Source: Methanosarcinaceae archaeon (lineage in GTDB: Archaea; Halobacteriota; Methanosarcinia; Methanosarcinales; Methanosarcinaceae). From it: 10,558 nt of DNA. The position numbers and the translations under genes are program-made. Shown here in pieces: positions 1,279-10,199 of the stretch; positions within the stretch are counted from its first letter, which is position 1, and each line of letters starts with the position of its first letter. Below the pieces are notes generated by a model. It ran no database searches. It was not told the DNA's origin and was given only the letters and a program-made list of their open reading frames with translations. The DNA is taken from assembly GCA_016935475.1 (NCBI GenBank), contig JAFGQV010000187.1, positions 1-10,558 of the forward strand, given 5' to 3'.

Positions 1279-2976
1279 TCATTCGAATTTAGTCCCGCAC
1301 ACCGAACAGAACTTCTCACCTTCACCTTTCTCTTTCCCACACTGTGGACAGGTTTTTGGTTCATCTTTTTCGACTTTTGATTTATACACAAAACTGTCTT
1401 TTACCTGTGTACCGATGCTATCACCATAATTGTAAATGTTCTGCACCATGGCAGAATCTATGAGACCTTTTACCAGTGTTCGCTTTTCGACCTCTTCAAG
1501 AATGCCGTGATAGAATCCGATCAGTGCTTCCTCGGTCTCTGCCCATGCCTTGATTATGAGTCTTGACTTATTCGTGCCGCCAACGACCTCGATCTGTGCA
1601 GCGTATTTAAGGTCCTTTACGCCAATTCCATAGAACCTTGCCACACCGTTATACATCTGGGGACTGGAAGATACCTCAGGTTCGAACATGAACATGTTCA
1701 TGTCCTCTATCACCCTTGATGCCATACCAAACAACGTTTCAGCCGGAATTGATATCTCCCGGGTTGTTTCCTCGGTCTTGACAAGATGAGTGATTATGTT
1801 TCTCCATTCGGTTATTGTGATCTCCTTGAGCTTCAGAAGCGGACAGATCACGCTGAGCGATTTTGTTTCAAGGTCGATCTCCTGGCGTTTCTTGGTGCTG
1901 TAATCATAGTAATTAACCCTGCCGGAAACATTGCAGTCTCCGCATTCGCCGGTAGGTCTGATCTCAAAGGTGACGGTTTTACTCTCACAGGGTTCGAGCA
2001 TAGAAATGGTTTTTTCGCTGTCGCTCAAAAGGAATACATCAGGAACAAAAAGGTGAACTTTGACGTCGCTGATAGGTTCAGATGTGGGATTTTCAACCTT
2101 GACCTTATAGTTGATCGTTGCACCTTTATATCCGAAAGCCGAGGAGGTTACCAATTTATCAGATGTATCGATTGCTTGCAAATCCGGTTCTGGTTCCGGA
2201 GCAAACGTTGGTTCTGGTGTTCTTGGTGGCTCTGGTGTTTTTGCGGGTTCTGGCGTTTTCGCTTGTTTTTTTCTGGCAGCATTCCTTTTTCTTGCTTTTC
2301 GAATACCTCTTATCATAAACAAAAAAAAGAACAACGATAACAACAAAAACAAAAGACCCAAAGCCTCTTCATCGGAAGAATCCTGTGCTGTGATCCCATT
2401 ATTCCAGTCTGTTTCAATAACCCTTGTATTGTCAACTGCAATTCCCTCTTTTTCGAGTGTTTGTGAAAACTCTGCTACATCATTGCTTGTAACATCAACG
2501 TACCCGAACGCATCATAATAATCCCATTTAGATAGTTCGATTTCATGCAGTCCGGTAGTTGTCTGGATCTTTATTGGGGTGGTGCCTTGATAAATACCAT
2601 CAAGATATACATCTGCACCATCAGGATAGGAAGTGACTGAAATGTACCCTGTGCTCAGTTTCTGCGCCAGGATTGCTTCAACATACGTAAATTCACCGGA
2701 TTCCACAGATATTTGCTCTAAATAATCATCGTAACCTGAACTTCTGATTTTGACCTTATGCGTTCCAACCGGAACGCCATCAAACCAGACCCAATCAGAT
2801 CCGGTCTGCCCATAGTACGTACCGTCAATATAGATATCCGAATATACCTGGTCAGACCAGACCGCAACAGAACCGGTTTGAGTTACAGTCGGAGCACATG
2901 CCACATTGGCATTCAATGCTATGACCAAAAATAAGATAATTGCTATCTTGATGGAATGTTCAATTCGTTTTGTCAT
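1279..2976 (-). CDS. Type-I membrane protein with extracellular PEGA domains, a TM helix, a KTPEP-repeat linker and a cytoplasmic ~290-aa module ending in a C-terminal zinc ribbon.
   Basis: Signal peptide MTKRIEHSIKIAIILFLVIALNANVA. Two PEGA-like repeats (VTSYPDGADVYLDGIYQGTTPIKIQTTTGLHEIELSKWDY; SDIYIDGTYYGQTGSDWVWFDGVPVGTHKVKIRSSGYDDY). Hydrophobic TM LGLLFLLLSLFFFLFMI, followed by a basic stop-transfer RKARKRNAARKKQAK. PEP-rich repeats KTPEPAKTPEPPRTPEPTFAPEPEP. The cytoplasmic domain is paralogous to the C-terminal part of the 6790..8289 protein. The terminal zinc ribbon is CPQCGKEKGEGEKFCSVCG. An AT-rich promoter-like element (aaaaatataataatattaatt, minus strand) lies in 2977..3035. Confidence 0.8.
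   Translation of the reverse strand: MTKRIEHSIKIAIILFLVIALNANVACAPTVTQTGSVAVWSDQVYSDIYIDGTYYGQTGSDWVWFDGVPVGTHKVKIRSSGYDDYLEQISVESGEFTYVEAILAQKLSTGYISVTSYPDGADVYLDGIYQGTTPIKIQTTTGLHEIELSKWDYYDAFGYVDVTSNDVAEFSQTLEKEGIAVDNTRVIETDWNNGITAQDSSDEEALGLLFLLLSLFFFLFMIRGIRKARKRNAARKKQAKTPEPAKTPEPPRTPEPTFAPEPEPDLQAIDTSDKLVTSSAFGYKGATINYKVKVENPTSEPISDVKVHLFVPDVFLLSDSEKTISMLEPCESKTVTFEIRPTGECGDCNVSGRVNYYDYSTKKRQEIDLETKSLSVICPLLKLKEITITEWRNIITHLVKTEETTREISIPAETLFGMASRVIEDMNMFMFEPEVSSSPQMYNGVARFYGIGVKDLKYAAQIEVVGGTNKSRLIIKAWAETEEALIGFYHGILEEVEKRTLVKGLIDSAMVQNIYNYGDSIGTQVKDSFVYKSKVEKDEPKTCPQCGKEKGEGEKFCSVCGTKFE
2185..2265 (-). repeat. In-frame ~15-nt tandem repeats encoding (K/R)TPEP x3 plus PEP-rich linker, immediately cytoplasmic to the TM helix.
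   Basis: On the plus strand the repeats are ggttctggtgttctt / ggtggctctggtgtt / tttgcgggttctggcgtt. The translated peptide is KTPEPAKTPEPPRTPEPTFAPEPEP. Confidence 0.7.
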
Positions 2977-3035
2977 TGATAGTATTTACTCAATTAATAT
3001 TATTATATTTTTGCACCACACTGTCCACACTTTTA

Positions 3036-3254
3036 TCAGGCGTAAATCAATCTGCCCTTTGGTGTTGGAATGCTCCGTCCCAGTTCCCTGGCGGTTTCGA
3101 TCCATTCCTCGATCACGATAAGGGCGTTTCGAACTGCTTCTTTGTATGTCCTGCCGTCTGCCATACAACCCGGGAGTTCCGGTACTTCCACAATATAGAC
3201 ACTATCGTCTTCACTCCAGTAAACGACCAGTTCATATTTTATATCTTCTGCCAT
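3036..3254 (-). CDS. HicB-family (UPF0150/RNase-H-like fold) antitoxin-like protein.
   Basis: The 72-aa product YELVVYWSEDDSVYIVEVPELPGCMADGRTYKEAVRNALIVIEEWIE matches the HicB N-domain signature (hhhhhxxEdGgYxaxvPdLPGCxsxGxTxEEAlxnxxEAIxl). An SD GGAGAA lies 8 nt upstream of the ATG. No HicA-like ORF is adjacent. Confidence 0.65.
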   Translation of the reverse strand: MAEDIKYELVVYWSEDDSVYIVEVPELPGCMADGRTYKEAVRNALIVIEEWIETARELGRSIPTPKGRLIYA

Positions 3255-3266
3255 GCTCAGTTCTCC

Positions 3267-3452
3267 TTAAGAGTAAAACTCCACGCCACACTTTGAGCAG
3301 AACCGCTCTCCCTCAACTCTCTCCTTCCCGCACTGCGGACAATTTTCACACCGCTTCCGACAATCGAGCACACAAACCACCACTACAACTTCGCCCCACA
3401 CTGCCCGCAGAACTTGGCATCTACTGGAATTGTTGCCCCGCACTCGGGACAT
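3267..3452 (-). CDS. Small Cys-rich double zinc-ribbon protein. 61 aa from the ATG, or ~37 aa if it starts at the GTG at 3380.
   Basis: Seven Cys are present: CVLDCRKRCENCPQCGKERVEGERFCSKCG. The C-terminal ribbon is identical at 14 of 22 residues to the ribbon at the end of the 1279..2976 protein. The ATG-initiated form overlaps the 3' end of the upstream SPFH gene by 70 nt. GTG codons lie immediately after that gene's stop. The stop at 3267 is 12 nt from the HicB start, with an SD in between. Whether it is translated as a separate protein is uncertain. Confidence 0.4.
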   Translation of the reverse strand: MSRVRGNNSSRCQVLRAVWGEVVVVVCVLDCRKRCENCPQCGKERVEGERFCSKCGVEFYS

Positions 3453-4666
3453 TTTTTCACAGCTGGACCCTTAACACCCTGCGCCGCGCCCATCATCCCG
3501 GCATCCAGTTCCTGCCGCCTGTATGAATCCGCACGCTCCCGGTCTTCAACATCCATCATGAACTGGACCTTATCTTCCTTTGCCCGGGCTTCAGCTTCCC
3601 GTATCTTTGCGAGGGCTTCGAGTTGTTCGGGTGACATACCGCCAAGTTCCCGACCCTGTACTATGGTACTGGCAACATCCGAACCACCTTTCTCGGTGAT
3701 CGTATTCAGGTACTCCATGTCACGGGAATGTTTTCGGTCGGTCATGTCTTCCTCAACTTCCAGATCAGCTCGTTTTGCCCCCGTCTTCGCTTCTTTCCAT
3801 GTTTTGAACGTCTCGATCGCCTGCCGTGCCTCCGCTGCATCCGCTTCATTTTCTATACCGGAGATATCAGCCTTAATGCGTGCCTCTTTGATCTTCTCTG
3901 CACGCTCATGCTCCCTCATAGCTGTTTCGGGTGCAAGCCTGCTCCTGACATCTGCAACACCCACGCGTCCCGTGCGTTCAAGGTCGCCTTCGGTGGTAAG
4001 AGTTTCCATATCCTTGAGCTCTTCTTCGGTCTGGAACTTGTTCGATGCCTCAAGGACCTCGCCGTAGCTTCCAAGGTCCCACTGTGCAGTGTAGCGCAGC
4101 AGCTCAAGTCCCCACATGGAAAGCGATGTCTTAAGTTGCATCTCAAGCTCGTTCTCCATCTTTAGCTGGAGATTGCGGTTGCCATAAATGTTCTCAATGT
4201 TCACCTGCTTGATCTCAGGCTCCAGTACCCGCGTGATCGTCTCGCTTTCAAGACGGCCATAGATATCCTGGATAGAAAGTGCACGCTCTCCTTTTTTATC
4301 GGGCGTCGTATATGCAAAAAGCATCTGGAAAAATTTTTTCGGGTCCTGCATCTTAAACCGCAGGATACCACTGCAACCAACCTTCTGGTTATCTGCTGTC
4401 CACATCTCAGCATGCTCCCACTCAAGGTCCTTTGGAGACGTGTCCATAAGTGCAACATCAACATCCTTCCCGATGTTGCCCGGTTTGAGTATGCCGCCCA
4501 CACGCAGTTTACCACTGTCGATTATCTCTTCGACCGTACCGTTCTTGATTATGGCAGCTTTTTCGTTAGGCGAAAGTATTATCGACTTGCTGAACAATCC
4601 ACCTACATCTTTTTTTGGGATCACCCTTGCAATATCATCTGATTGTTTTTTCCATTTGAATACCAT
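3383..4666 (-). CDS. SPFH/band-7 (flotillin-like, YdjI-type) protein with a long charged coiled-coil region and a C-terminal zinc ribbon.
   Basis: The N-terminus FKWKKQSDDIARVIPKKDVGGLFSKSIILSPNEKAAIIKNGTVEEIIDSGKLRVGG matches the N-terminal signature of the YdjI-like SPFH family (W...D.IvwkfP...i..gSqLiV.e.Q.AvF..dG...d.f.pG...L). A ~200-aa E/R/K/A-rich helical region follows. The end is KKCPECGATIPVDAKFCGQCGAKL. An SD AGGTG lies 8 nt upstream of the ATG at 4666. Confidence 0.7.
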   Translation of the reverse strand: MVFKWKKQSDDIARVIPKKDVGGLFSKSIILSPNEKAAIIKNGTVEEIIDSGKLRVGGILKPGNIGKDVDVALMDTSPKDLEWEHAEMWTADNQKVGCSGILRFKMQDPKKFFQMLFAYTTPDKKGERALSIQDIYGRLESETITRVLEPEIKQVNIENIYGNRNLQLKMENELEMQLKTSLSMWGLELLRYTAQWDLGSYGEVLEASNKFQTEEELKDMETLTTEGDLERTGRVGVADVRSRLAPETAMREHERAEKIKEARIKADISGIENEADAAEARQAIETFKTWKEAKTGAKRADLEVEEDMTDRKHSRDMEYLNTITEKGGSDVASTIVQGRELGGMSPEQLEALAKIREAEARAKEDKVQFMMDVEDRERADSYRRQELDAGMMGAAQGVKGPAVKKCPECGATIPVDAKFCGQCGAKL

Positions 4667-4723
4667 ATTTACGACACCTGTTCCTTTCGATAGCTTGTTT
4701 GCTTAGAAAGATATTGGGTAAGT

Positions 4724-4736
4724 ATTATATATAATG
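4724..4736. promoter_or_regulatory. Shared AT-rich TATA-box-like element (tattatatataat) in the divergent intergenic region between the SPFH gene and the RHH/ESCRT-III operon.
   Basis: The 127-bp intergenic region 4667..4793 is strongly AT-rich. The near-palindromic element is placed ~25-30 nt upstream of plausible TSSs on both strands. Confidence 0.35.
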
Positions 4737-4738
4737 TT

Positions 4739-4758
4739 TTCTATTGTATACAATAGAA
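4739..4758. promoter_or_regulatory. Perfect 20-bp palindrome TTCTATTGTATACAATAGAA, a candidate operator (likely for the adjacent RHH protein), between the TATA element and the RHH start.
   Basis: The sequence equals its own reverse complement (10+10, no spacer). It lies 36 nt upstream of the RHH ATG at 4794. Confidence 0.5.
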
Positions 4759-4793
4759 GCCAGTTTGACTATAATTATAACGGTGGAGACCAA

Positions 4794-4949
4794 ATGGGAA
4801 TATCATATCCGGTAAGTGCAAGAGTATCAGAGAACATAAAACAATACCTAGATGAATTGGTTGAGAGGGGGATCGCAATTAATACTTCTGAAGCATTAAA
4901 AATATGTATAAGGTATGCTAAACAAAAGAAAATGGAGGATGAAATATAA
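4794..4949 (+). CDS. Ribbon-helix-helix (CopG/Arc-like) DNA-binding protein, 51 aa, likely autoregulator of the downstream operon.
   Basis: MGISYPVSARVSENIKQYLDELVERGIAINTSEALKICIRYAKQKK shows a beta-strand with alternating hydrophobics followed by two helices. An SD GGTGGAG (4783..4789) lies 5 nt before the ATG at 4794. The track's upstream ATG at 4734 lacks an RBS and would start inside the promoter. The stop overlaps the next start (TAATG). Confidence 0.6.
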   Translation: MGISYPVSARVSENIKQYLDELVERGIAINTSEALKICIRYAKQKKMEDEI

Positions 4950-5512
4950 TGGGACTTGGAAATCCATTCAAAAAAGTATCACCTGAAGAACTGAAAACAA
5001 AACTCGCGATATCCGAACAGAGATTATCTGCACGGGAATCTGAACTCTCCAAAAAACGCCAGAAATCACGTGAACAAGCAAAGGAAGCACTGGCAAACGG
5101 TAACGACCGTGAGTTTAGGGTTGCATCCCGCAGGTATTCCATGGTTGAGGGACAGGTCAATACCATCAGCAGCATGGTGGAGATGGCACAATCCATGACA
5201 GATGTGATTGAGATGCAGACAGGGCTTAAGGAAGTTGTTGATATCGGGAACGATCTTGGCAAATGGCAAAAACAGCTTGGATTTGACACGAGTAAACTGG
5301 AGAGTGCAGTTACCAACATCCGCACCTCCATGGAGAAAGTGAACACTGCAACCAATATGATGACATCTTCAATGGATGCAGCCATGGCTGGCGGAACTGA
5401 ACTTAGCGATATGCAGGATTCACTCAGGGGCGAGTTGCTGGCAGAACTTAGCGGTGAGACGGCATCCAAGGATAAGCTATCCAAGAAGATCGAAGAAGAG
5501 ATGGAAGAGTGA
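4949..5512 (+). CDS. ESCRT-III/Snf7/PspA-superfamily protein (CdvB/CHMP-like), 187 aa.
   Basis: MGLGNPFKKVSPEEL... parallels the CHMP/Snf7 N-terminus (MGLFGK..PKE). The basic helical N-half (KKRQKSREQAKEALANGNDREFRVASRRYSMVEGQ) and the acidic, Met-rich helical C-half follow the charge asymmetry of the Snf7 domain. The protein ends in an acidic amphipathic helix DKLSKKIEEEMEE, which is MIM-like. A strong SD GGAGGA lies 9 nt upstream. The gene is followed by a MIT-AAA ATPase gene. Confidence 0.55.
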   Translation: MGLGNPFKKVSPEELKTKLAISEQRLSARESELSKKRQKSREQAKEALANGNDREFRVASRRYSMVEGQVNTISSMVEMAQSMTDVIEMQTGLKEVVDIGNDLGKWQKQLGFDTSKLESAVTNIRTSMEKVNTATNMMTSSMDAAMAGGTELSDMQDSLRGELLAELSGETASKDKLSKKIEEEMEE

Positions 5513-5600
5513 ATTGGTGCTATGGTTGGGTGTGAACCTATGGCATTATTATTTTACCATATCCACTGAAACCACATAGCCACAGCAATAAATAACGGAT

Positions 5601-6767
5601 GTGCCCCATTTGACATCTACAAGTTCACTCGCGGCCCAGGCCCGCGGATATGCAAAAGCTGCCAGGACCTTAGAGGATGAGAACAAATACGAGCGAGCGA
5701 GAGAACTCTACCTCAAGGCAGCTAAATTATACAACGAAGCATCAAAGATCGCAACCGACAAGACCGATAAGAACACCCAGCGCGACCTTGCAGAGCATCT
5801 TCTTGCAAAAGCGCAGTCCCTCAAAAGCTCAGGTGCCCACGATTCAGTTTCCGGGATTAGCAGTGGAAGCGGTGGTAGCGATTCTGACGAGTCTTCGTTA
5901 TCAAAGGATGACCTTATCCTGAAACAGATCCCTAACATCGGATTTGATGACATCGGCGGTCTTGAATCCGTAAAAGAGGACATCAGGAAGGCGATCATAT
6001 ACCCCTTCACCCACAAGGACCTGTACAAGATGTACGGACAGAAAGCAGGCGAAGGCATTCTCCTCTACGGACCTCCAGGCTGCGGTAAGACCATGATGGC
6101 AAAGGCTGCTGCTAAGGAATGCGGCGCGGACTTTATCAGTGTCAAGACGAGTAGTATTGTGAGCAAATGGGTGGGAGCGTCCGAGAAGAATGTCAAACAG
6201 GTTTTTGAGACTGCGCGCCAGTGTGAGAAATCCATCATCTTTTTTGATGAGATCGATTCAATAGCCGGAAGGCGCAGCGAGAGCGAGGATTACGCCAAGC
6301 GCGTGGTTAACGAACTCCTCGCCCAGATGGACGGGGTCGATACGGCTGATGACAATCTCCTTATCCTTGCAGCCACCAACGAGCCGTGGGCGATCGACCC
6401 GGCTCTGCGGCGCCCGGGGCGTTTCAGTAAACTGGTGTTCATACCTGAACCGGACCTCGATGCCCGTGCAGCAATATTCAAGCTCAACCTGAAAGGGCGA
6501 CCGATTTCGGATGATGTTGATGTCAACCGGCTTGCCGGGATCACAGAATCGTATTCAGGTGCGGACATTTCTGCTATCTGTAAAGAAGCAGCGGATATTC
6601 CGCTGGGCGAGGCGCTTCGTGGCGGTGAGGCACGGAAGATCGCAATGAAGGATTTCGTAACAGTACTGCAAGGTCGGAAGCCTTCTATCTTAAGCTGGTA
6701 TGTGGAAGCCCGGGCGGAAGTTAGGAAGAGCGGGGAAGAAGCAGTGTTTGAGGGGATAATGGGATGA
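5601..6767 (+). CDS. Vps4/CdvC-like AAA+ ATPase (meiotic clade) with N-terminal MIT-like three-helix domain.
   Basis: The start is a GTG at 5601, the only in-frame start before the domain. The N-terminus AAQARGYAKAARTLEDENKYERARELYLKAAKLYNEASKIA...LAEHLLAKAQSLK resembles the Vps4 MIT domain (A..LA..A...D..G.YeeAl.lY..a...f.......  ....eYl.RAE.LK). An S/G/D-rich linker follows. The AAA core has Walker A GPPGCGKT, Walker B IIFFDEID, an SRH LAATNEPWAIDPALRRPGRF and a sensor-2 region. The protein ends shortly after the AAA lid, so no Vps4 beta-domain or C-terminal helix is evident. Confidence 0.8.
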   Translation: MPHLTSTSSLAAQARGYAKAARTLEDENKYERARELYLKAAKLYNEASKIATDKTDKNTQRDLAEHLLAKAQSLKSSGAHDSVSGISSGSGGSDSDESSLSKDDLILKQIPNIGFDDIGGLESVKEDIRKAIIYPFTHKDLYKMYGQKAGEGILLYGPPGCGKTMMAKAAAKECGADFISVKTSSIVSKWVGASEKNVKQVFETARQCEKSIIFFDEIDSIAGRRSESEDYAKRVVNELLAQMDGVDTADDNLLILAATNEPWAIDPALRRPGRFSKLVFIPEPDLDARAAIFKLNLKGRPISDDVDVNRLAGITESYSGADISAICKEAADIPLGEALRGGEARKIAMKDFVTVLQGRKPSILSWYVEARAEVRKSGEEAVFEGIMG

Positions 6768-6789
6768 TGATTATAGTGAGTGTTTTTTA

Positions 6790-8289
6790 ATGAATGTTAT
6801 ACTTACAAATCAAATGAAAAAGATACTGCATGGTGAAAAAGCAGTAGCTATTGCATCAGCATCTATGAACAAATCAGTATTTGATACTGATGTAGGTGTC
6901 AGTGATTCAGAACTCTTAAATAACGTGGTTTCAACAGTCAACGAAGTATTTGAGAATGATAAAAAAATTAGTGGTTCAGTGCTTTTAACAGATAGTCGTA
7001 TCATACTATATTCAAAACGGACTTTAGGTGGTTACTATTTCAAAGATTTTCGAATAAATTCGATTAACGGTGTCACATTCAAAAATGGATTTTTAAAATC
7101 TAGCATGATATTTCATACAAATAACGGTGATACTAAAATAAATATGCCAGATAAAAACGCCGCAAAAAAATTAAATATCGCTCTGGAAACACGCATATCT
7201 AAATGGAAAAAAGAAGCAATTGCCATTGAATCTTATGACGCCGTAGAAATAACATCACATAAACCCACAAAACATTCAGACAACATTAATTCAGACCTTT
7301 TAATATCCCGCGAAACCGAATTTTACCAGGGTTTTATTCGATTAAAGATGTCTGTCACCAACACTTCATCCTTTGTAGTTAACGATGTCACTCTCGATTT
7401 TGATTATGATAACAACTTATTAAGAATAGACAGACACGAACCTGATTATCAAATTGAAAATGGAAAAGTCATATTTGGAAATATATCTGTCGATTCTTCA
7501 AAAACCGTTGCAATTTACTTTGATCCAATGATGTGCTCAAAAGGTACAGACATCAACTGCCAGATAAATTACAAAGATGCAAAAGGGCAGCTCCAAACTA
7601 CTCAGATGGAATCAAAGAAAATTAGTGTGGTTTGCCCGATAATGGAAACAGAATCTGATATAAACATCGGCAGACTTAAAGAGTTCATCAAAAAACTGCC
7701 GTATAGTGACAGCAAGGTGTATCAATTACAGAACAATTATGATATCGATATTCTAAAAAATATCTCACGGGAAGTTGTACAAAAACACAATGTTAAGCAC
7801 ATAAGGACTCTTATTACGAAAGATGAAAAAATGTGTGAGGTATGGTACTATGGCAAGACCAAAGTGCACAGCCATGATATTGTCATTAAAATTACAATTT
7901 TAAGCGAAACACAGAACATTGAATTGTTTGCTGCAACTCAAACTGTAGAATCTCTTGCCGGACTGCTGGCAGAAGTAGGACGTGAGTTGAAGAGTGCTAT
8001 TGAAAGTAAGATCACCGGCAATGTTCAGCAAGTCATCAATGTGTCTATCAAGGATTCTATTGTCCAGCGAAGCAACCTTTTGAGTTATTGTGATATTGAC
8101 GGTAATTGCAGTGGGGATGTTGTTATTGAAGACAGTCTTGTGATGCGTTCGAATATTAGTTCGGATGCTGAAGTTAAGGACAGTGTAGTGCAAAAAACTA
8201 ATGTCGGTAATATCTTTTGTACGGCTTGTGGAGAGGCTGTGCCGGCTGGTGCAAAGTTCTGCATGGAATGTGGGGAGAGGTTAAAGTGA
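6790..8289 (+). CDS. Multidomain protein with four parts: a PH/GRAM-like N-domain, a two-Cys beta-sandwich-like domain, KDSxVxxSN repeats and a C-terminal zinc ribbon. Paralog of the cytoplasmic part of the 1279..2976 protein.
   Basis: Residues ~60-125 (SGSVLLTDSRIILYSKRTLGGYYFKDFRINSINGVTFKNGFLKSSMIFHTNNGDTKINMP) fit a bacterial-PH/GRAM-like strand pattern. Residues ~178-283 align to residues ~283-380 of the PEGA protein (SKTV..F...P..C..G.D.N....INY.D.......+.....K.+SV+CP). The repeats are IKDSIVQRSNL / IEDSLVMRSNI / VKDSVVQKTNV. The end is CTACGEAVPAGAKFCMECGERLK. The first ~1.1 kb is markedly AT-rich relative to its neighbours. Confidence 0.55.
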   Translation: MNVILTNQMKKILHGEKAVAIASASMNKSVFDTDVGVSDSELLNNVVSTVNEVFENDKKISGSVLLTDSRIILYSKRTLGGYYFKDFRINSINGVTFKNGFLKSSMIFHTNNGDTKINMPDKNAAKKLNIALETRISKWKKEAIAIESYDAVEITSHKPTKHSDNINSDLLISRETEFYQGFIRLKMSVTNTSSFVVNDVTLDFDYDNNLLRIDRHEPDYQIENGKVIFGNISVDSSKTVAIYFDPMMCSKGTDINCQINYKDAKGQLQTTQMESKKISVVCPIMETESDINIGRLKEFIKKLPYSDSKVYQLQNNYDIDILKNISREVVQKHNVKHIRTLITKDEKMCEVWYYGKTKVHSHDIVIKITILSETQNIELFAATQTVESLAGLLAEVGRELKSAIESKITGNVQQVINVSIKDSIVQRSNLLSYCDIDGNCSGDVVIEDSLVMRSNISSDAEVKDSVVQKTNVGNIFCTACGEAVPAGAKFCMECGERLK

Positions 8290-8320: not shown

Positions 8321-8722
8321 ATGAGCAACCTAGAAGAAGGCATGCGGTGGTTCAAACAAAGTGAACGCGACCTCGGCGCAGCTGCGAGTCTGCGGGATAG
8401 TGAATACTACGAATCTGCATGTTTCCATGCGCAGCAGGCGTCGGAAAAAGCACTCAAAGGACTGCTCTATGCGAAAGGGTACAGGTCTGTAATAACCCAC
8501 TCCACGCGAGAATTATACAAACATGTAAAAAAACTGATCCCGGACTTTAAGGATTATGACCATGCATCGATGAATCTTGACAAACACTACATTCCACCGC
8601 GCTACCCGGATGCATTCCCCTCCGGCTCACCCTATGAATATTACACAAAAGAGGATGCAGACAAATGCATAAACTATGCAGGATTGATATTAGCCGAAGT
8701 GAGAAACTTCATGAGCGAATAA
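8321..8722 (+). CDS. HEPN-domain protein (toxin partner of the HEPN/MNT module).
   Basis: FHAQQASEKALKGLLYAKG is a typical HEPN helix. An R-x4-H motif (RELYKH) is present. An SD GGGAGG (8311..8316) lies 5 nt upstream of the ATG. The 3' end overlaps the downstream MNT gene by 58 nt. Confidence 0.75.
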   Translation: MSNLEEGMRWFKQSERDLGAAASLRDSEYYESACFHAQQASEKALKGLLYAKGYRSVITHSTRELYKHVKKLIPDFKDYDHASMNLDKHYIPPRYPDAFPSGSPYEYYTKEDADKCINYAGLILAEVRNFMSE

Positions 8723-9024
8723 AACAGTTCGTGTCAAGACTCGCATCCCGTCCGGGCATCAAGCAGGTCTACCTGTTCGGCTCGGTCGCGCGGGACGATT
8801 TCAATGAAGGCAGCGACATAGACATTGCTATCATAGGGGATTTCAAAGAGCGATTTTTAGATAGGGGTGACGCGTTTTTTGAAATGACCGATCTTCCGAT
8901 AGAACCGCTCTGCTACACCGAATCTGAATTTGAAACAATGAAGAAGAGCAATAATCCCTTTGTAAAAGAGATATTGAAAGGGAAGATACTGTTCGATCAT
9001 CAGAAAAGGCGAGGTTTCACATGA
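8665..9024 (+). CDS. Minimal nucleotidyltransferase (MNT, Pol-beta superfamily), antitoxin-type partner of HEPN.
   Basis: LFGSVARDDFNEGSDIDIAII matches the G[SG]x9-13Dh[DE]h NTase signature. The true start may be a non-ATG codon downstream of 8665. The stop overlaps the next gene's start (ATGA at 9021..9024). Confidence 0.8.
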   Translation: MHKLCRIDISRSEKLHERIKQFVSRLASRPGIKQVYLFGSVARDDFNEGSDIDIAIIGDFKERFLDRGDAFFEMTDLPIEPLCYTESEFETMKKSNNPFVKEILKGKILFDHQKRRGFT

Positions 9025-10199
9025 CCGACCACGAAACAGACCCAAAAACCCTCCAGCAAAATAACCGCAAAAAGGCGATCAACAACCTGCGCGATGTGCA
9101 TGCGGCAATCGAAAGACTGATGAACAAAACCTACCGCCAGCAGGATGTGACCGCAAGTTCCGCACTCAGGCAGATGAGGACAAGGGTAACTGCGCTGCTC
9201 TCGGAGATGGAGAACACAGGTCTTGACACATTCAGCGGACGCGAGGGTACACTGGATGAGTTCTACAACGCTGAGGAGCATTTCACCAAAAGCTCGACCA
9301 GACTGATAAAAGCAGTCGAAGATGCTGAGGTCACCGATGAAAAGGTCGATGTGTTTTCACTGGAAGATCTTGTCGATGCACTGGAGAGGGGTTTCAACAA
9401 CAGGATCATTCTCACACAGGAACACCTGAAAGAATACGAAAAACTACGAACGGAGTCCCGGAAAGAAGAAATTACCGAGGAGCCCTTCAAGGCTGTGCAG
9501 GATACTGTATCTGAAACCGTGGCGGATGCAGAAGTTGAAGAGATATCCGAAGATATTGATTCATCAATGCCACCGGAACTCTATAATTACATCAACATCC
9601 TTGAGCAGAAATACTCGACCTACAGACCCGAGATATCAAACAGCGGCGATTATATTGCAAACAAATCATGGAAAGTGGATACAGCAGAGGACGGTATTCG
9701 AGCTGTTGTCAAGGACGGGATGTTCAAAACACTACTTGTTTTTGAGACATACTGGATGCCACTGGATAATGTGCAGGATACTGTAAAGTTCGTGCAGTCG
9801 CAGGCGAATGCGGTTGGCAAGAACCAGTACAAAAGCCTGTGTCTCATTAACAGTGTATGGAACAATGAGGTCCAAAACTGGGCAGGAAGTTTCGTTCATC
9901 AGCGTATGGTTCTATTCCTGTATGAACTTGAAAGCGGGACACTCATTTTTAATGGAACATCAAAGACTGCAGACAACTTTAAGTTCTGGCACTCTACTGA
10001 CAATCAGAAAATGACACTTGCCGATGAAATGGCTGGTTTTATTGAGGATACGGAATACTTCACGGTCACTGACGTTATGTCACGTTTTGGCTTGAACTCC
10101 CGCGGGGCAGAGATGTACCTGGATGAACTGGTAAAGAAAGGAAAACTTGTTGATGTGGGACTCGAAAAACCGAAATACACAAAATCAAAACTCAGCTGA
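9021..10199 (+). CDS. Hypothetical 392-aa protein translationally coupled to HEPN-MNT. It has three parts: a helical N-region, an acidic linker and a C-terminal winged-helix-like domain.
   Basis: An SD GGCGAGG precedes the ATG. The acidic stretch is EEITEEPFKAVQDTVSETVADAEVEEISEDID. The C-terminus YFTVTDVMSRFGLNSRGAEMYLDELVKKGKLV resembles a wHTH. No catalytic motif was recognised with confidence. Confidence 0.6.
   Translation: MTDHETDPKTLQQNNRKKAINNLRDVHAAIERLMNKTYRQQDVTASSALRQMRTRVTALLSEMENTGLDTFSGREGTLDEFYNAEEHFTKSSTRLIKAVEDAEVTDEKVDVFSLEDLVDALERGFNNRIILTQEHLKEYEKLRTESRKEEITEEPFKAVQDTVSETVADAEVEEISEDIDSSMPPELYNYINILEQKYSTYRPEISNSGDYIANKSWKVDTAEDGIRAVVKDGMFKTLLVFETYWMPLDNVQDTVKFVQSQANAVGKNQYKSLCLINSVWNNEVQNWAGSFVHQRMVLFLYELESGTLIFNGTSKTADNFKFWHSTDNQKMTLADEMAGFIEDTEYFTVTDVMSRFGLNSRGAEMYLDELVKKGKLVDVGLEKPKYTKSKLS

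Follow-up and report, generated by a model that had tools for sequence, protein, structure and literature searches.

C-terminal zinc ribbons on accessory proteins of a Methanosarcinaceae ESCRT-type gene cluster

Organization of the locus

The window, a stretch of 10,558 nucleotides from a Methanosarcinaceae contig (JAFGQV010000187.1), contains a central promoter region flanked by a divergent gene pair. On one side, all on the forward strand, lie genes for a small RHH-like protein (4734..4949; 71 aa with a conserved 51-aa core; Pfam RHH_1 E=0.006), an ESCRT-III-like protein (4949..5512; 187 aa), a Vps4/CdvC-like MIT-AAA ATPase (5601..6767; 388 aa), a membrane-associated adaptin-appendage protein (6790..8289; 499 aa) and a coiled-coil protein carrying a C-terminal winged helix (9021..10199; 392 aa). 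The other side, on the reverse strand, encodes a soluble SPFH cage-type protein (3383..4666; 427 aa) and a second adaptin-appendage protein, which is TM-anchored and has extracellular PEGA domains (1279..2976; 565 aa). The RHH-like gene, whose stop codon overlaps the ESCRT-III start (ATGA), immediately preceded ESCRT-III in all loci compared. The ESCRT-III-like protein's Snf7 match lay under the Pfam cut-off (E=0.0027 over 4-161 of 171), and the protein was 78-90% conserved among loci. The ATPase matched Pfam AAA (E=3.5e-45) and MIT (E=0.0068) and the NCBIfam CdvC model from end to end (7-369 against 4-359 of 370). The winged-helix protein, with a weak EAP30/Vps36 match at residues 298-377 (E=0.0045), was found in the compared loci and is encoded by the final conserved gene of the cluster.

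There is good support from sequence comparison that the 'Meth_adaptin' ESCRT system described by Makarova et al. in 2024 is present in the window in a Methanosarcinaceae copy. Orthologues in the Methanosalsum zhilinae locus (WP_013898571-WP_013898578) share 31-76% identity (ESCRT-III 76%, Vps4 66%, SPFH 50%, adaptin protein 48%, winged-helix protein 31%), and the gene order is kept across ~15 related loci. Both loci have the core of small RHH-like gene, ESCRT-III, Vps4 and coiled-coil/winged-helix protein, two adaptin-appendage (arCOG15284) proteins and, on the divergent strand, an SPFH-coiled-coil-Zn-ribbon protein. The cluster is already on record, as are Zn ribbons on the SPFH protein and one adaptin-like protein, which were noted in M. 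zhilinae on the SPFH protein and on WP_013898571 (PMC10936438). The window differs in that its TM-adaptin has an N-terminal extracellular PEGA head and a C-terminal cytoplasmic cassette with ribbon, whereas in the TM-adaptins of M. zhilinae, whose heads are GOLD and ProX, the cassette comes first and a ribbon is lacking. The head of the Vps4-side adaptin protein also varies, being a PH domain in the window, two to three TM helices in Methanolobus and another N-domain in M. zhilinae. Finally, the ProX gene is absent from the window, and toxin-antitoxin genes are inserted in two intergenic slots.

These inserted genes are outside the ESCRT system. The first, a HicB-like antitoxin of 72 aa (3036..3254, reverse strand; Pfam HicB_lk_antitox E=7e-10), lies between the SPFH and TM-adaptin genes, a slot in which no other compared locus has one; the same hicB does occur in contig L107, downstream of a ribbon-ended gene. 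The second is a putative HEPN/nucleotidyltransferase pair (8321..9024, forward strand), named from the translations alone, whose overlapping ORFs (8321-8722 and 8665-9024) sit between the PH-adaptin and winged-helix genes. ORF 8665-9024 is ~90% identical to two ORFs in the equivalent slot of L086, one with NTP_transf_2/Polbeta, and that slot also holds other toxin-antitoxin-like genes.

Three ribbon-tailed proteins and a relic

Four ORFs in the window, those of the PEGA, SPFH and PH proteins and a small ORF, end in a common motif, C-x2-C-G-x7-[KR]F-C-x2-C-G, a PF13240-type zinc ribbon in which the spacing between the second and third cysteines is fixed at 10 residues. The first-pass annotation had described these four terminal ribbons, and all of its quoted peptides were found in the sequence exactly. 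All four also match Pfam Zn_Ribbon_1 (PF13240), at 33.3 bits for SPFH (E=3.8e-8), 28.9 for the small ORF and 28.7 for PH, above the 25-bit cut-off, and at 21.5 bits (E=1.9e-4), slightly under it, for the PEGA protein. Their net charge is about zero, with the exception of a flanking KK on SPFH. The ribbon tails are a real, conserved feature of three accessory proteins and one fragment.

The same annotation had treated the carriers as otherwise unrelated, which proved incorrect. In the PEGA protein (Pfam PEGA E=2.3e-25) a signal/anchor is followed by two extracellular PEGA domains, a TM helix (201-228), a RKARKRNAARKK stretch, an adaptin-appendage-like cassette (residues ~271-535) and the ribbon CPQCGKEKGEGEKFCSVCG (543-561 of 565; 1294..1350, reverse strand). 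As the TM helix precedes a poly-basic stretch, the cassette and ribbon are predicted to be cytoplasmic (hydropathy, positive-inside pattern). Orthologues are found at the corresponding position of 10 loci, every complete one ending in a ribbon. The Vps4-side protein consists of a PH domain, an adaptin-appendage-like cassette, a tether predicted to be disordered (449-473, pLDDT<50 in the structure model) and the ribbon CTACGEAVPAGAKFCMECG (477-495 of 499; 8218-8274, forward strand). Residues 271-565 of the PEGA protein are homologous to 167-499 of the PH protein (BLASTP E=9e-10), so that the two are paralogues over a ~300-aa ribbon-carrying cassette. Among PH protein homologues, ribbon tails are confined to those with a C-terminal cassette, the majority of which carry one.

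The SPFH protein (Pfam Band_7 E=7e-8) has no TM segment by hydropathy. In its AF2 model an SPFH domain (1-198) leads into helices (199-327 and 346-395), a tether (395-399, pLDDT<50) and a terminal domain (403-427) containing the ribbon CPECGATIPVDAKFCGQCG (406-424 of 427; 3395-3451, reverse strand); the ribbons themselves reach pLDDT 63-78 in the PH and SPFH models. Foldseek matched the SPFH model to flotillin, HflK/C, prohibitin, stomatin and erlin cages (E 6e-10 to 1e-6), with which the predicted SPFH domain and long helical stalk align. Unlike those proteins, it lacks a TM or hairpin anchor, adds a C-terminal ribbon and is encoded beside ESCRT-III/Vps4.

The fourth ribbon, CPQCGKERVEGERFCSKCG (3285-3341, reverse strand), occupies residues 38-56 of a 61-aa reading of the small ORF (3267-3452, reverse strand) that starts from an ATG at 3452 and overlaps the SPFH gene. 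PGAP annotates a 34-aa form (3267..3371; MBN2489174.1), which is present in NCBI nr. A fresh local duplication of the ribbon module, as had been suggested, is rejected: similarity to the PEGA tail (16 of 22 aa, 68% nt identity) comes with saturated synonymous sites (pS 0.95, pN 0.16), and the fragment is ~90% identical at the nucleotide level to the end of a gene running off contig L107 (...KDSFVYKSNVGSSETETCPQCGKDRVEGELFCSKCGVEFHSKGN*), a longer reading frame that is followed by the same hicB. Homology to L107 begins immediately past the SPFH stop codon, and relative to that copy the window has 3-nt and 4-nt deletions ahead of the ribbon. The other compared loci have no counterpart. By these comparisons the small ORF is the truncated, decayed 3' end of another TM-adaptin paralogue, the remnant of a third cassette-bearing gene, and the fully intact ribbon proteins number three.

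Enrichment and origin of the ribbons

After overlapping ORFs were dropped, a C-terminal CxxC-x5-14-CxxC was found in 30/93 genes inside 15 related clusters, in 0/135 genes in the flanks of the same contigs (Fisher p=8e-14) and in 2/1037 genes in ~1.2 Mb of unrelated archaeal loci, counts that are inflated by shared ancestry. The proposed clustering of membrane-proximal ribbon proteins around an ESCRT-III/Vps4 core thus held up, the arrangement being conserved in Methanosarcinales loci and the ribbons strongly enriched relative to neighbouring genes. Since two paralogues and the relic share descent of the adaptin cassette, the independent acquisitions are only about two, by the SPFH protein and by the cassette.

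One explanation for the data is that the ribbons are ordinary PF13240 'end caps' that keep the termini stable or attach to zinc or to the membrane surface, with no specific role in ESCRT assembly, and that their clustering reflects one paralogous cassette and a coincidence with SPFH. The residues common to all ribbons (CPxCG, FCxxCG) fit this, being fold determinants of the whole family, which is found on many unrelated prokaryotic proteins, rather than system-specific, and they count against docking. Of the three full-length ribbons two have a common origin, leaving about two acquisitions to explain, and with an upper 95% bound of ~2% on the flank base rate, two hits among ~8 conserved families give p ~0.01. 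Again counting against docking, ribbon-tailed neighbours are missing around the more distantly related ESCRT-III genes (33-42% identity) that have a Vps4-like AAA next to them. We nevertheless consider this explanation rather unlikely, given the scarcity of such tails among flank and control genes and the retention of the ribbon in 88/93 SPFH homologues, down to 48% identity. Six-frame ORFs of the control loci gave three tail matches only, one of which adjoins another Snf7/Vps4 pair: in L003 an unrelated beta-propeller/solenoid protein with the same ribbon end is encoded right after a Snf7-like/Vps4-like pair, which also serves as an independent parallel in favour of docking. The SPFH ribbon lies at the stalk end, which points away from the membrane in solved SPFH cages and argues against lipid binding. 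The near-zero net charge also counts against this explanation.

At variable ribbon positions identity is 0.36-0.60 within a family and 0.15-0.25 between families, the between-family values being no higher for ribbons from one locus than for ribbons from separate loci. Each ribbon is therefore under its own long-term selection. These family-specific surfaces argue against a single common binding site.

A proposed docking role

We propose that the ribbons may serve as protein-protein docking handles, a shared recruitment role that is plausible because of their anatomy, a tethered cytoplasmic module with family-specific conservation, and by analogy. Each would fold independently into a small cytoplasmic knob, carried on a flexible tether at the very C-terminus. 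In the adaptin-like proteins, built as 'variable head + appendage cassette + ribbon', it would be the constant terminal part, and in the SPFH protein it would stand at the distal tip of a helical stalk of ~190 residues, so that a flotillin/HflK-type cage, if formed, would display many ribbons together, away from the membrane. The handles would join the SPFH scaffold and the membrane-anchored cargo or sensor receptors with the ESCRT-III/Vps4 core in one assembly, with three candidate partners: ESCRT-III itself, the MIT domain of Vps4 and the winged-helix protein. On the two ribbonless M. zhilinae TM-adaptins, with their N-terminal cassettes, the ribbon is dispensable, which counts against docking. 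The Meth_adaptin identity of the window and the docking role, taken jointly, form a tentative reading that we place just short of an even chance.

The analogy with YdjG drawn in the first-pass annotation is apt for the PspA-YdjGHI (SamGHI) system of Bacillus subtilis, in which an ESCRT-III-superfamily protein is likewise encoded with a TM protein bearing zinc ribbons and a soluble SPFH protein, YdjI/SamI, with a zinc finger at its C-terminus and a linker of low complexity (PMC11237479; bioRxiv 10.64898/2026.02.06.704340). YdjI binds PspA and needs YdjG and YdjH to reach the membrane (PMC8581546; PMC11237479), the members being interdependent for localization (PMC8581546; PMC11237479; bioRxiv 10.64898/2026.02.06.704340); the two-hybrid data did not dissect the role of the zinc finger itself (PMC8581546). 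The likeness is one of design and not of membership. The Bacillus system is bacterial, has PspA rather than a Snf7-like branch and lacks Vps4 and adaptin-like proteins, and the ribbons of YdjG come as a pair at the N-terminus (PMC11237479; bioRxiv 10.64898/2026.02.06.704340) rather than singly at the C-terminus. The archaeal SPFH-ribbon proteins showed no sequence relationship to Bacillus proteins, the named matches among 93 homologues being all archaeal.

Another possibility is that the SPFH and receptor ribbons bind each other, perhaps through a shared zinc, and tether soluble SPFH to the membrane as YdjG and YdjH recruit YdjI, which depends on ribbon-bearing YdjG and on YdjH for membrane localization (PMC8581546). 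In Methanolobus-type loci the TM-less SPFH protein always neighbours a TM protein with a cytoplasmic ribbon. Such coupling is decidedly unlikely in our view, as M. zhilinae SPFH keeps its ribbon although its TM-adaptins have none, four cysteines per ribbon suffice for its own zinc, and the two-hybrid contacts of Scholz et al. were YdjI-YdjH and YdjI-PspA, with YdjI-YdjG not reported (PMC8581546).

The suggested likeness to NZF fingers did not survive. The NZF/RanBP2-type finger of the eukaryotic ESCRT-II Vps36 GLUE domain and the finger of Asgard Znr_PH_CC_SB proteins are also small four-Cys ribbons with C-x2-C-x10-C-x2-C spacing, borne by an ESCRT accessory protein with a PH domain, and in eukaryotes the finger docks Vps28 and ubiquitin (summarized in PMC10936438). 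However, the window ribbons gave no zf-RanBP Pfam match at E<=0.1, lack the conserved Trp, Asn and Thr-Phe ubiquitin-binding dipeptide, have a Gly after the second Cys and are C-terminal rather than inserted into the PH domain, and there is no sign of ubiquitin-like cargo in these loci. Nucleic-acid binding or a regulatory role, as Popp et al. suggested for YdjG (TF_Zn_Ribbon; PMC9239133), is barely probable. Some zinc ribbons do bind DNA or RNA, and profile comparison with the PDB gave weak matches to ribbons of ribosomal and RNA-binding type, but the proteins carrying the window ribbons are scaffolds and receptors of the membrane rather than regulators, the ribbons lack a basic patch, and the best PDB match was a terminal ribbon with no assigned function on a cyclic-nucleotide-binding protein.

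Lastly, the ribbons could be recognition tags that let the Vps4-like AAA act on SPFH and adaptin assemblies, engaging them through its MIT domain or its pore and taking them apart. Eukaryotic Vps4 recognizes C-terminal motifs of its substrates, and the ribbons stand at extreme C-termini on flexible tethers. We judge this very unlikely; zinc ribbons are not among the known MIT-interacting motifs. No ribbon protein follows Vps4 in L088, L091 and L093, whereas in the window and in L082, L084, L085 and L003 the gene next after the Vps4-like one encodes such a protein.

A Meth_adaptin ESCRT locus

The window locus very probably belongs to the Meth_adaptin ESCRT system, a clade whose neighbourhood has already been described and whose parts, in the available text of that paper, are Vps4, ESCRT-III, an SPFH/coiled-coil/zinc-ribbon protein, a coiled-coil/wHTH protein and two adaptin-appendage proteins (arCOG15284, with Ig-like and TBP-like domains) (Makarova et al., 2024; PMC10936438). 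The Meth_adaptin proteins of the window have orthologues in the example locus from Methanosalsum zhilinae (L106), which was fetched for comparison. Identity is 76% for the 187-aa ESCRT-III-like protein (4949-5512, plus strand), 66% for Vps4, a 388-aa MIT-AAA ATPase (5601-6767, plus), 70% for a 71-aa RHH-like protein (4734-4949, plus), 50% between the 427-aa SPFH protein (3383-4666, minus) and Mzhil_1285, 48% over residues 152-491 between the 499-aa PH-domain protein (6790-8289, plus) and WP_013898571, and 31% between the 392-aa coiled-coil/wHTH protein (9021-10199, plus) and WP_013898572. The ESCRT-III gene lies immediately upstream of the ATPase gene, as in Meth_adaptin; two adaptin-appendage proteins are encoded, the PH protein and the TM-anchored PEGA protein (565-aa ORF, 1279-2976, minus), and SPFH domain, coiled coil and ribbon are combined in one protein (Band_7 and Zn_Ribbon_1 matches, AF2 model, Foldseek). 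The Pfam Snf7 and MIT matches both fall under their own cut-offs and alignment of ESCRT-III against the PDB gave no Snf7/CHMP match, so the ESCRT-III assignment is based on the sub-threshold Pfam match together with orthology to the published locus. The NCBIfam CdvC model aligns end to end with the ATPase. By sequence score alone this ATPase is as near to the Cdc48/VCP D2 domain as it is to CdvC (NCBIfam models: 268.9 bits over 244 residues for CDC48 and 245.4 bits end to end for CdvC), and its assignment to Vps4 rests on architecture (a weak MIT match and a single AAA domain) and the published phylogeny. An OpuAC/ProX gene was found neither in the window nor in Methanolobus-type loci (Pfam scan and locus comparison). 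In M. zhilinae ProX forms the head of one TM-adaptin protein; it counts among the variable heads of Meth_adaptin, not among its core features.

The ribbons, their carriers and their distribution

The four ribbon peptides quoted in the first-pass annotation, from the PEGA, SPFH and PH proteins and a small ORF (3267-3452, minus), were all found in the window exactly as written. All lie within 4-6 residues of the C-terminus, with the spacing C-x2-C-x10-C-x2-C in four of four tails, Gly after the second and fourth Cys and [KR]F before the third; the Cys, invariant across 22 aligned tails, make up two CxxC knuckles and one predicted Zn site. Two Pfam families had been put forward for comparison. 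Zn_Ribbon_1 (PF13240) matches all four proteins, with scores of 33.3 (SPFH), 28.9 (small ORF) and 28.7 bits (PH protein) against a gathering score of 25 bits; the PEGA protein, at 21.5 bits (E=1.9e-4), is slightly under the cut-off and has the same motif. DZR (PF12773) reached at most 26.1 bits (SPFH) against a cut-off of 27.3, its alignments span half of the model, and the ribbons are not DZR because there is one ribbon per protein. The proposed likeness to NZF fingers shrinks to the Cys spacing: a Pfam scan gave no zf-RanBP (PF00641) match at E<=0.1 in any of the four proteins, and the W, TF and N positions of the NZF signature W-x-C-x2-C-(T-F)-x-N are missing in the alignment of tails. The ribbons are members of PF13240, and neither DZR nor NZF/RanBP2 fingers. 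A profile of the 22 tails found its best PDB match in the C-terminal ribbon of a Bdellovibrio cyclic-nucleotide-binding protein, 9SFA, for which the accessible text describes no ribbon function.

The four carriers had been called otherwise unrelated, which does not hold for two of them. The PEGA protein consists of an N-terminal anchor, two PEGA domains, one TM helix and a poly-basic stretch, and residues 271-565, which form its cytoplasmic part, show homology to PH-protein residues 167-499 (E=9e-10); the two proteins therefore share an adaptin-cassette-plus-ribbon module by descent. In the AF2 model of the PH protein (mean pLDDT 78) a PH domain (1-140) and a linker are followed by an Ig-like sandwich (166-285) and an alpha/beta domain (290-410), then by a poorly predicted repeat region, a disordered segment (449-473) and the ribbon. 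Residues 411-473 of this protein (window 8020-8215) contain three short repeats, [IV]xDS[ILV]VQ[RK][ST]N, between cassette and ribbon and a nearly invariant C-x5-C (C434, C440), and are conserved in homologues yet of low confidence in the model. The cassette forms a large Methanosarcinales family with PH, TM-helix, TPR, HEAT, WD40/PQQ, FGE-sulfatase, GOLD, FKBP and MIT heads. Only where it is the C-terminal part of the protein does the ribbon tail occur, and most such proteins carry it; the ribbon is missing if the cassette comes first and a TM helix and outside domain lie behind it. Genomes contain several copies of the cassette, Methanosarcina sp. MTP4 for instance having three (proteins P0021-P0120).

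No TM segment is present in the SPFH protein. In its model the SPFH domain leads into approximately 190 residues of helix and, after a brief linker, the ribbon; Foldseek aligns this model with subunits of the flotillin, HflK/C, prohibitin, stomatin and erlin cages. A sequence search with the protein against the PDB found nothing. Among 93 homologues retrieved, all those with a named source were archaeal (Methanosarcinales, Halobacteriota or Euryarchaeota) and none came from Bacillus.

To place the ribbons in their genomic setting, orthologous loci were gathered via PH- and SPFH-protein homologues on long contigs, and a genome-collection scan with the Vps4-like protein, in which back-translated AAA motifs drew Cdc48-like two-domain ATPases from many archaea and not orthologues, supplied 80 Cdc48-type loci as controls. 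With overlapping ORFs removed and a tail counted if the gene ended in CxxC-x5-14-CxxC, 30 of 93 genes within 15 clusters were ribbon-tailed, against 0 of 135 in the flanks of the same contigs (Fisher p=8e-14) and 2 of 1037 in the control loci. Across these flank and control genes, therefore, such tails are rarer than in the clusters; equal frequency on random membrane proteins of the same genome was the outcome that the first-pass annotation had named as fatal to its proposal. About two independent acquisitions of the ribbon are represented, since the orthologous loci are non-independent and two of the ribbon proteins are paralogous; the presence of two ribbon families among ~8 conserved cluster genes is unlikely to be due to chance (p ~0.01 at the upper confidence bound of the flank rate, ~2%). 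As two more distant ESCRT-III loci (L108-L110 and L112) have no ribbon tails on the neighbours of ESCRT-III, the tails are clade-limited within this family. The ESCRT-III family is rare (67 clusters at 50% identity among 1.84 billion representatives). At L108-L110 and L112 ESCRT-III lies beside a Vps4-like AAA, and the rest of the neighbourhood is of an entirely different make-up: L108-L110 encode a 508-aa protein containing an internal CxxC pair together with a 1275-aa surface protein, and L112 has high-GC genes for which Pfam annotation is sparse or absent.

The raw six-frame count gave just three ribbon-tailed ORFs in the controls, and the one in L003 lies directly 3' of another Snf7-like/Vps4-like pair. 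This region (L003:2244-7936; JBAXBF010000128.1, labelled a Chloroflexota MAG) is an independent ESCRT-like locus met by chance among the controls, in which a Vps4-like AAA, a 219-aa Snf7-like protein (Pfam E=2e-4) and a second Vps4-like AAA with Vps4_C are followed by an 879-aa PQQ beta-propeller and TPR/alpha-solenoid protein ending in the same ribbon (NKNCPVCNLPIEKGAKFCEACGTKL). The layout of this protein is protocoatomer-like, and it has only the ribbon in common with the window proteins (hhalign 94%, 25 columns).

Within the related clusters the ribbon is kept in 88 of the 93 SPFH homologues, the exceptions being partial or degraded, and in every complete TM-adaptin orthologue from ten loci (10/10). 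The slot after Vps4 varies: some loci have an adaptin there with a PH or TM head and a ribbon tail, others have no such gene, and one lineage has a version whose tail differs; L082 encodes a fourth protein (289 aa) with the same pre-ribbon motif and ribbon. M. zhilinae has a canonical ribbon on SPFH only, two TM-adaptins without any, and in WP_013898571 a derived CPC...CPIC site with an extension. At the twelve variable ribbon positions, identity is 0.36-0.60 within a family across loci and 0.15-0.25 between families, in the same locus or not, so that each family keeps its own ribbon surface. Concerted evolution or gene conversion among the ribbons of one locus is ruled out by the same figures, because between-family identity is equal within and between loci.

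The small ORF had been taken as a local duplication of the ribbon module. Its ribbon is of the TM-adaptin class (CG[KR]E...GE[KR]FC) and nearest to the PEGA tail of the window (16/22 aa, 68% nt identity); with pS at 0.95 (saturated) and pN at 0.16, values that are approximate as there are only 13 synonymous sites, the two would be old paralogues under protein-level selection, and a recent duplication of the PEGA tail is ruled out with the same reservation. A better account comes from metagenome contig L107, which carries a near-identical relative of the HicB-like protein encoded next to the small ORF (3036-3254, minus). On that contig the gene ahead of hicB is cut off by the contig edge, and its remaining end reads '...KDSFVYKSNVGSSETETCPQCGKDRVEGELFCSKCGVEFHSKGN*', in which KDSFVYKS is the conserved TM-adaptin pre-ribbon motif. 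The window aligns to L107 at ~90% nt identity from just past the SPFH stop codon, with 3-nt and 4-nt deletions ahead of the ribbon. From this alignment and these deletions, the small ORF is read as what is left of a second TM-adaptin paralogue: its 3' end, truncated and with a broken frame. In the other loci compared the SPFH gene directly adjoins the TM-adaptin gene, with no ORF in between, and the small ORF is a singleton cluster in the protein collection. The last 34 codons alone are still open and PGAP annotates exactly those (MBN2489174.1); as an ORF of 34-61 aa that is absent elsewhere and homologous to the longer L107 gene, it does not qualify as an independent conserved gene. The L107 gene end also rules out a functional mini-ribbon, with expression of the 34-aa ORF possible, and an alternative SPFH tail made by -1 frameshifting at the A-run 3451-3457.

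A possible docking role

The system and, according to the available text, two of its ribbons were already in the 2024 paper (PMC10936438), so the present work adds detail to that system and does not define a new one. What is new is that the TM-anchored receptor of Methanolobus/Methanosarcinaceae also ends in the ribbon, that the adaptin cassette has the ribbon as its constant tail, that ribbon enrichment has been quantified, its conservation found to be family-specific and the small ORF recognized as a probable relic, and that an unrelated ribbon-tailed propeller/solenoid protein stands beside another Snf7/Vps4 pair. Archaeal ESCRT systems outside TACK and Asgard have no experimentally known function or assembly order, and a conserved tethered zinc knob common to an SPFH scaffold and membrane receptors offers a mutable handle on accessory recruitment to ESCRT-III/Vps4.

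The ribbons are cytoplasmic and terminal, lie behind low-confidence or low-complexity tethers and are under family-specific purifying selection. They may act as docking knobs, an explanation that we regard as plausible and a little short of probable. On the adaptin-like proteins the ribbon is the constant end of a 'variable head/constant cassette' design, which has the look of a series of adaptors for cargo or sensing. In the SPFH protein its place is the stalk end, which in solved SPFH cages forms the membrane-distal cap; multivalent display therefore seems likely there and a lipid-binding role unlikely. The first-pass annotation had proposed a common docking role, and a single common partner is opposed by the family-specific ribbon surfaces, by the M. 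zhilinae TM-adaptins without a ribbon and by the lack of ribbon tails around the more distant ESCRT-III family members compared.

The closest functional precedent is the PspA-YdjGHI system of Bacillus subtilis. YdjI/SamI has an SPFH domain, a low-complexity linker and a C-terminal zinc finger, lacks a membrane anchor and binds PspA (PMC8581546; PMC11237479), and it needs YdjH and the ribbon-bearing YdjG for membrane localisation (PMC8581546); the B. subtilis work did not separate the contribution of the zinc modules. The window has only architecture in common with this system: a Pfam scan found no PspA_IM30 or TPM-domain gene in it, and no Bacillus protein turned up among the 93 SPFH homologues. 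By analogy, the locus may work like PspA-YdjGHI, of which module it is not a member, and the parallel makes the recruitment idea approachable in a tractable bacterium. It is improbable, in our estimate, that the C-terminal PF13240 ribbon serves ESCRT-III-superfamily machines as an ancient, modular code for recruitment, used in Meth_adaptin archaea, with YdjI/YdjG and PspA in bacteria and at L003-type Snf7/Vps4 loci. If it did, tethered zinc knobs of one kind would couple the polymer to SPFH scaffolds as well as to receptors for cargo or sensing in all three settings, the ribbon would be a prokaryotic functional counterpart of the ESCRT-II NZF fingers, and the variable-head adaptin-ribbon paralogues of Methanosarcinales would be a cargo adaptor family feeding one ESCRT machine.

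Other genes of the cluster

The RHH-like gene is translationally coupled to ESCRT-III by an ATGA overlap; its product has a 51-aa core in every related locus and gives weak matches to Mb1296_C and to the C-terminal portion of the AbmR model, and the available text of Makarova et al. (2024) does not discuss it. The gene adjoining the PEGA gene encodes a PD40 propeller protein (187-1236, minus) that starts with a signal/anchor, has a TM helix at its C-terminus and has no homologue among the 23 other related loci compared. G+C in the PH-adaptin gene region (window 6501-8000) is 0.34-0.37, compared with 0.51-0.52 in the SPFH and Vps4 regions, which suggests replacement via recombination or transfer and fits the variable slot after Vps4.

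In Methanolobus-type loci a further gene, for a protein of ~420 aa, separates the adaptin gene (or Vps4) from the wHTH gene (L084:11823-13094 and L085:11817-13109, with equivalents in L089, L095, L098, L099 and L102). The protein has 2 TM helices at its N-terminus and three Ig-like repeats in its interior, carries no ribbon and is missing from the window. Two chimeric ORFs, one joining the ESCRT-III N-terminus to the SPFH C-terminus (L104:167-502) and one the wHTH-protein N-terminus to the TM-adaptin C-terminus (L092:8906-10126), each including the ribbon, reflect either errors of assembly or genuine rearrangements that span the divergent promoter. Toxin-antitoxin-type genes occupy two intergenic slots of the window, with hicB lacking hicA at 3036-3254 and a putative HEPN/nucleotidyltransferase pair at 8321-9024 (plus), and at L086:7421-9833 the slot between the adaptin and wHTH genes holds two UPF0175/DUF3368 pairs and nucleotidyltransferase fragments; these two slots of the cluster seem to be insertion hot spots.
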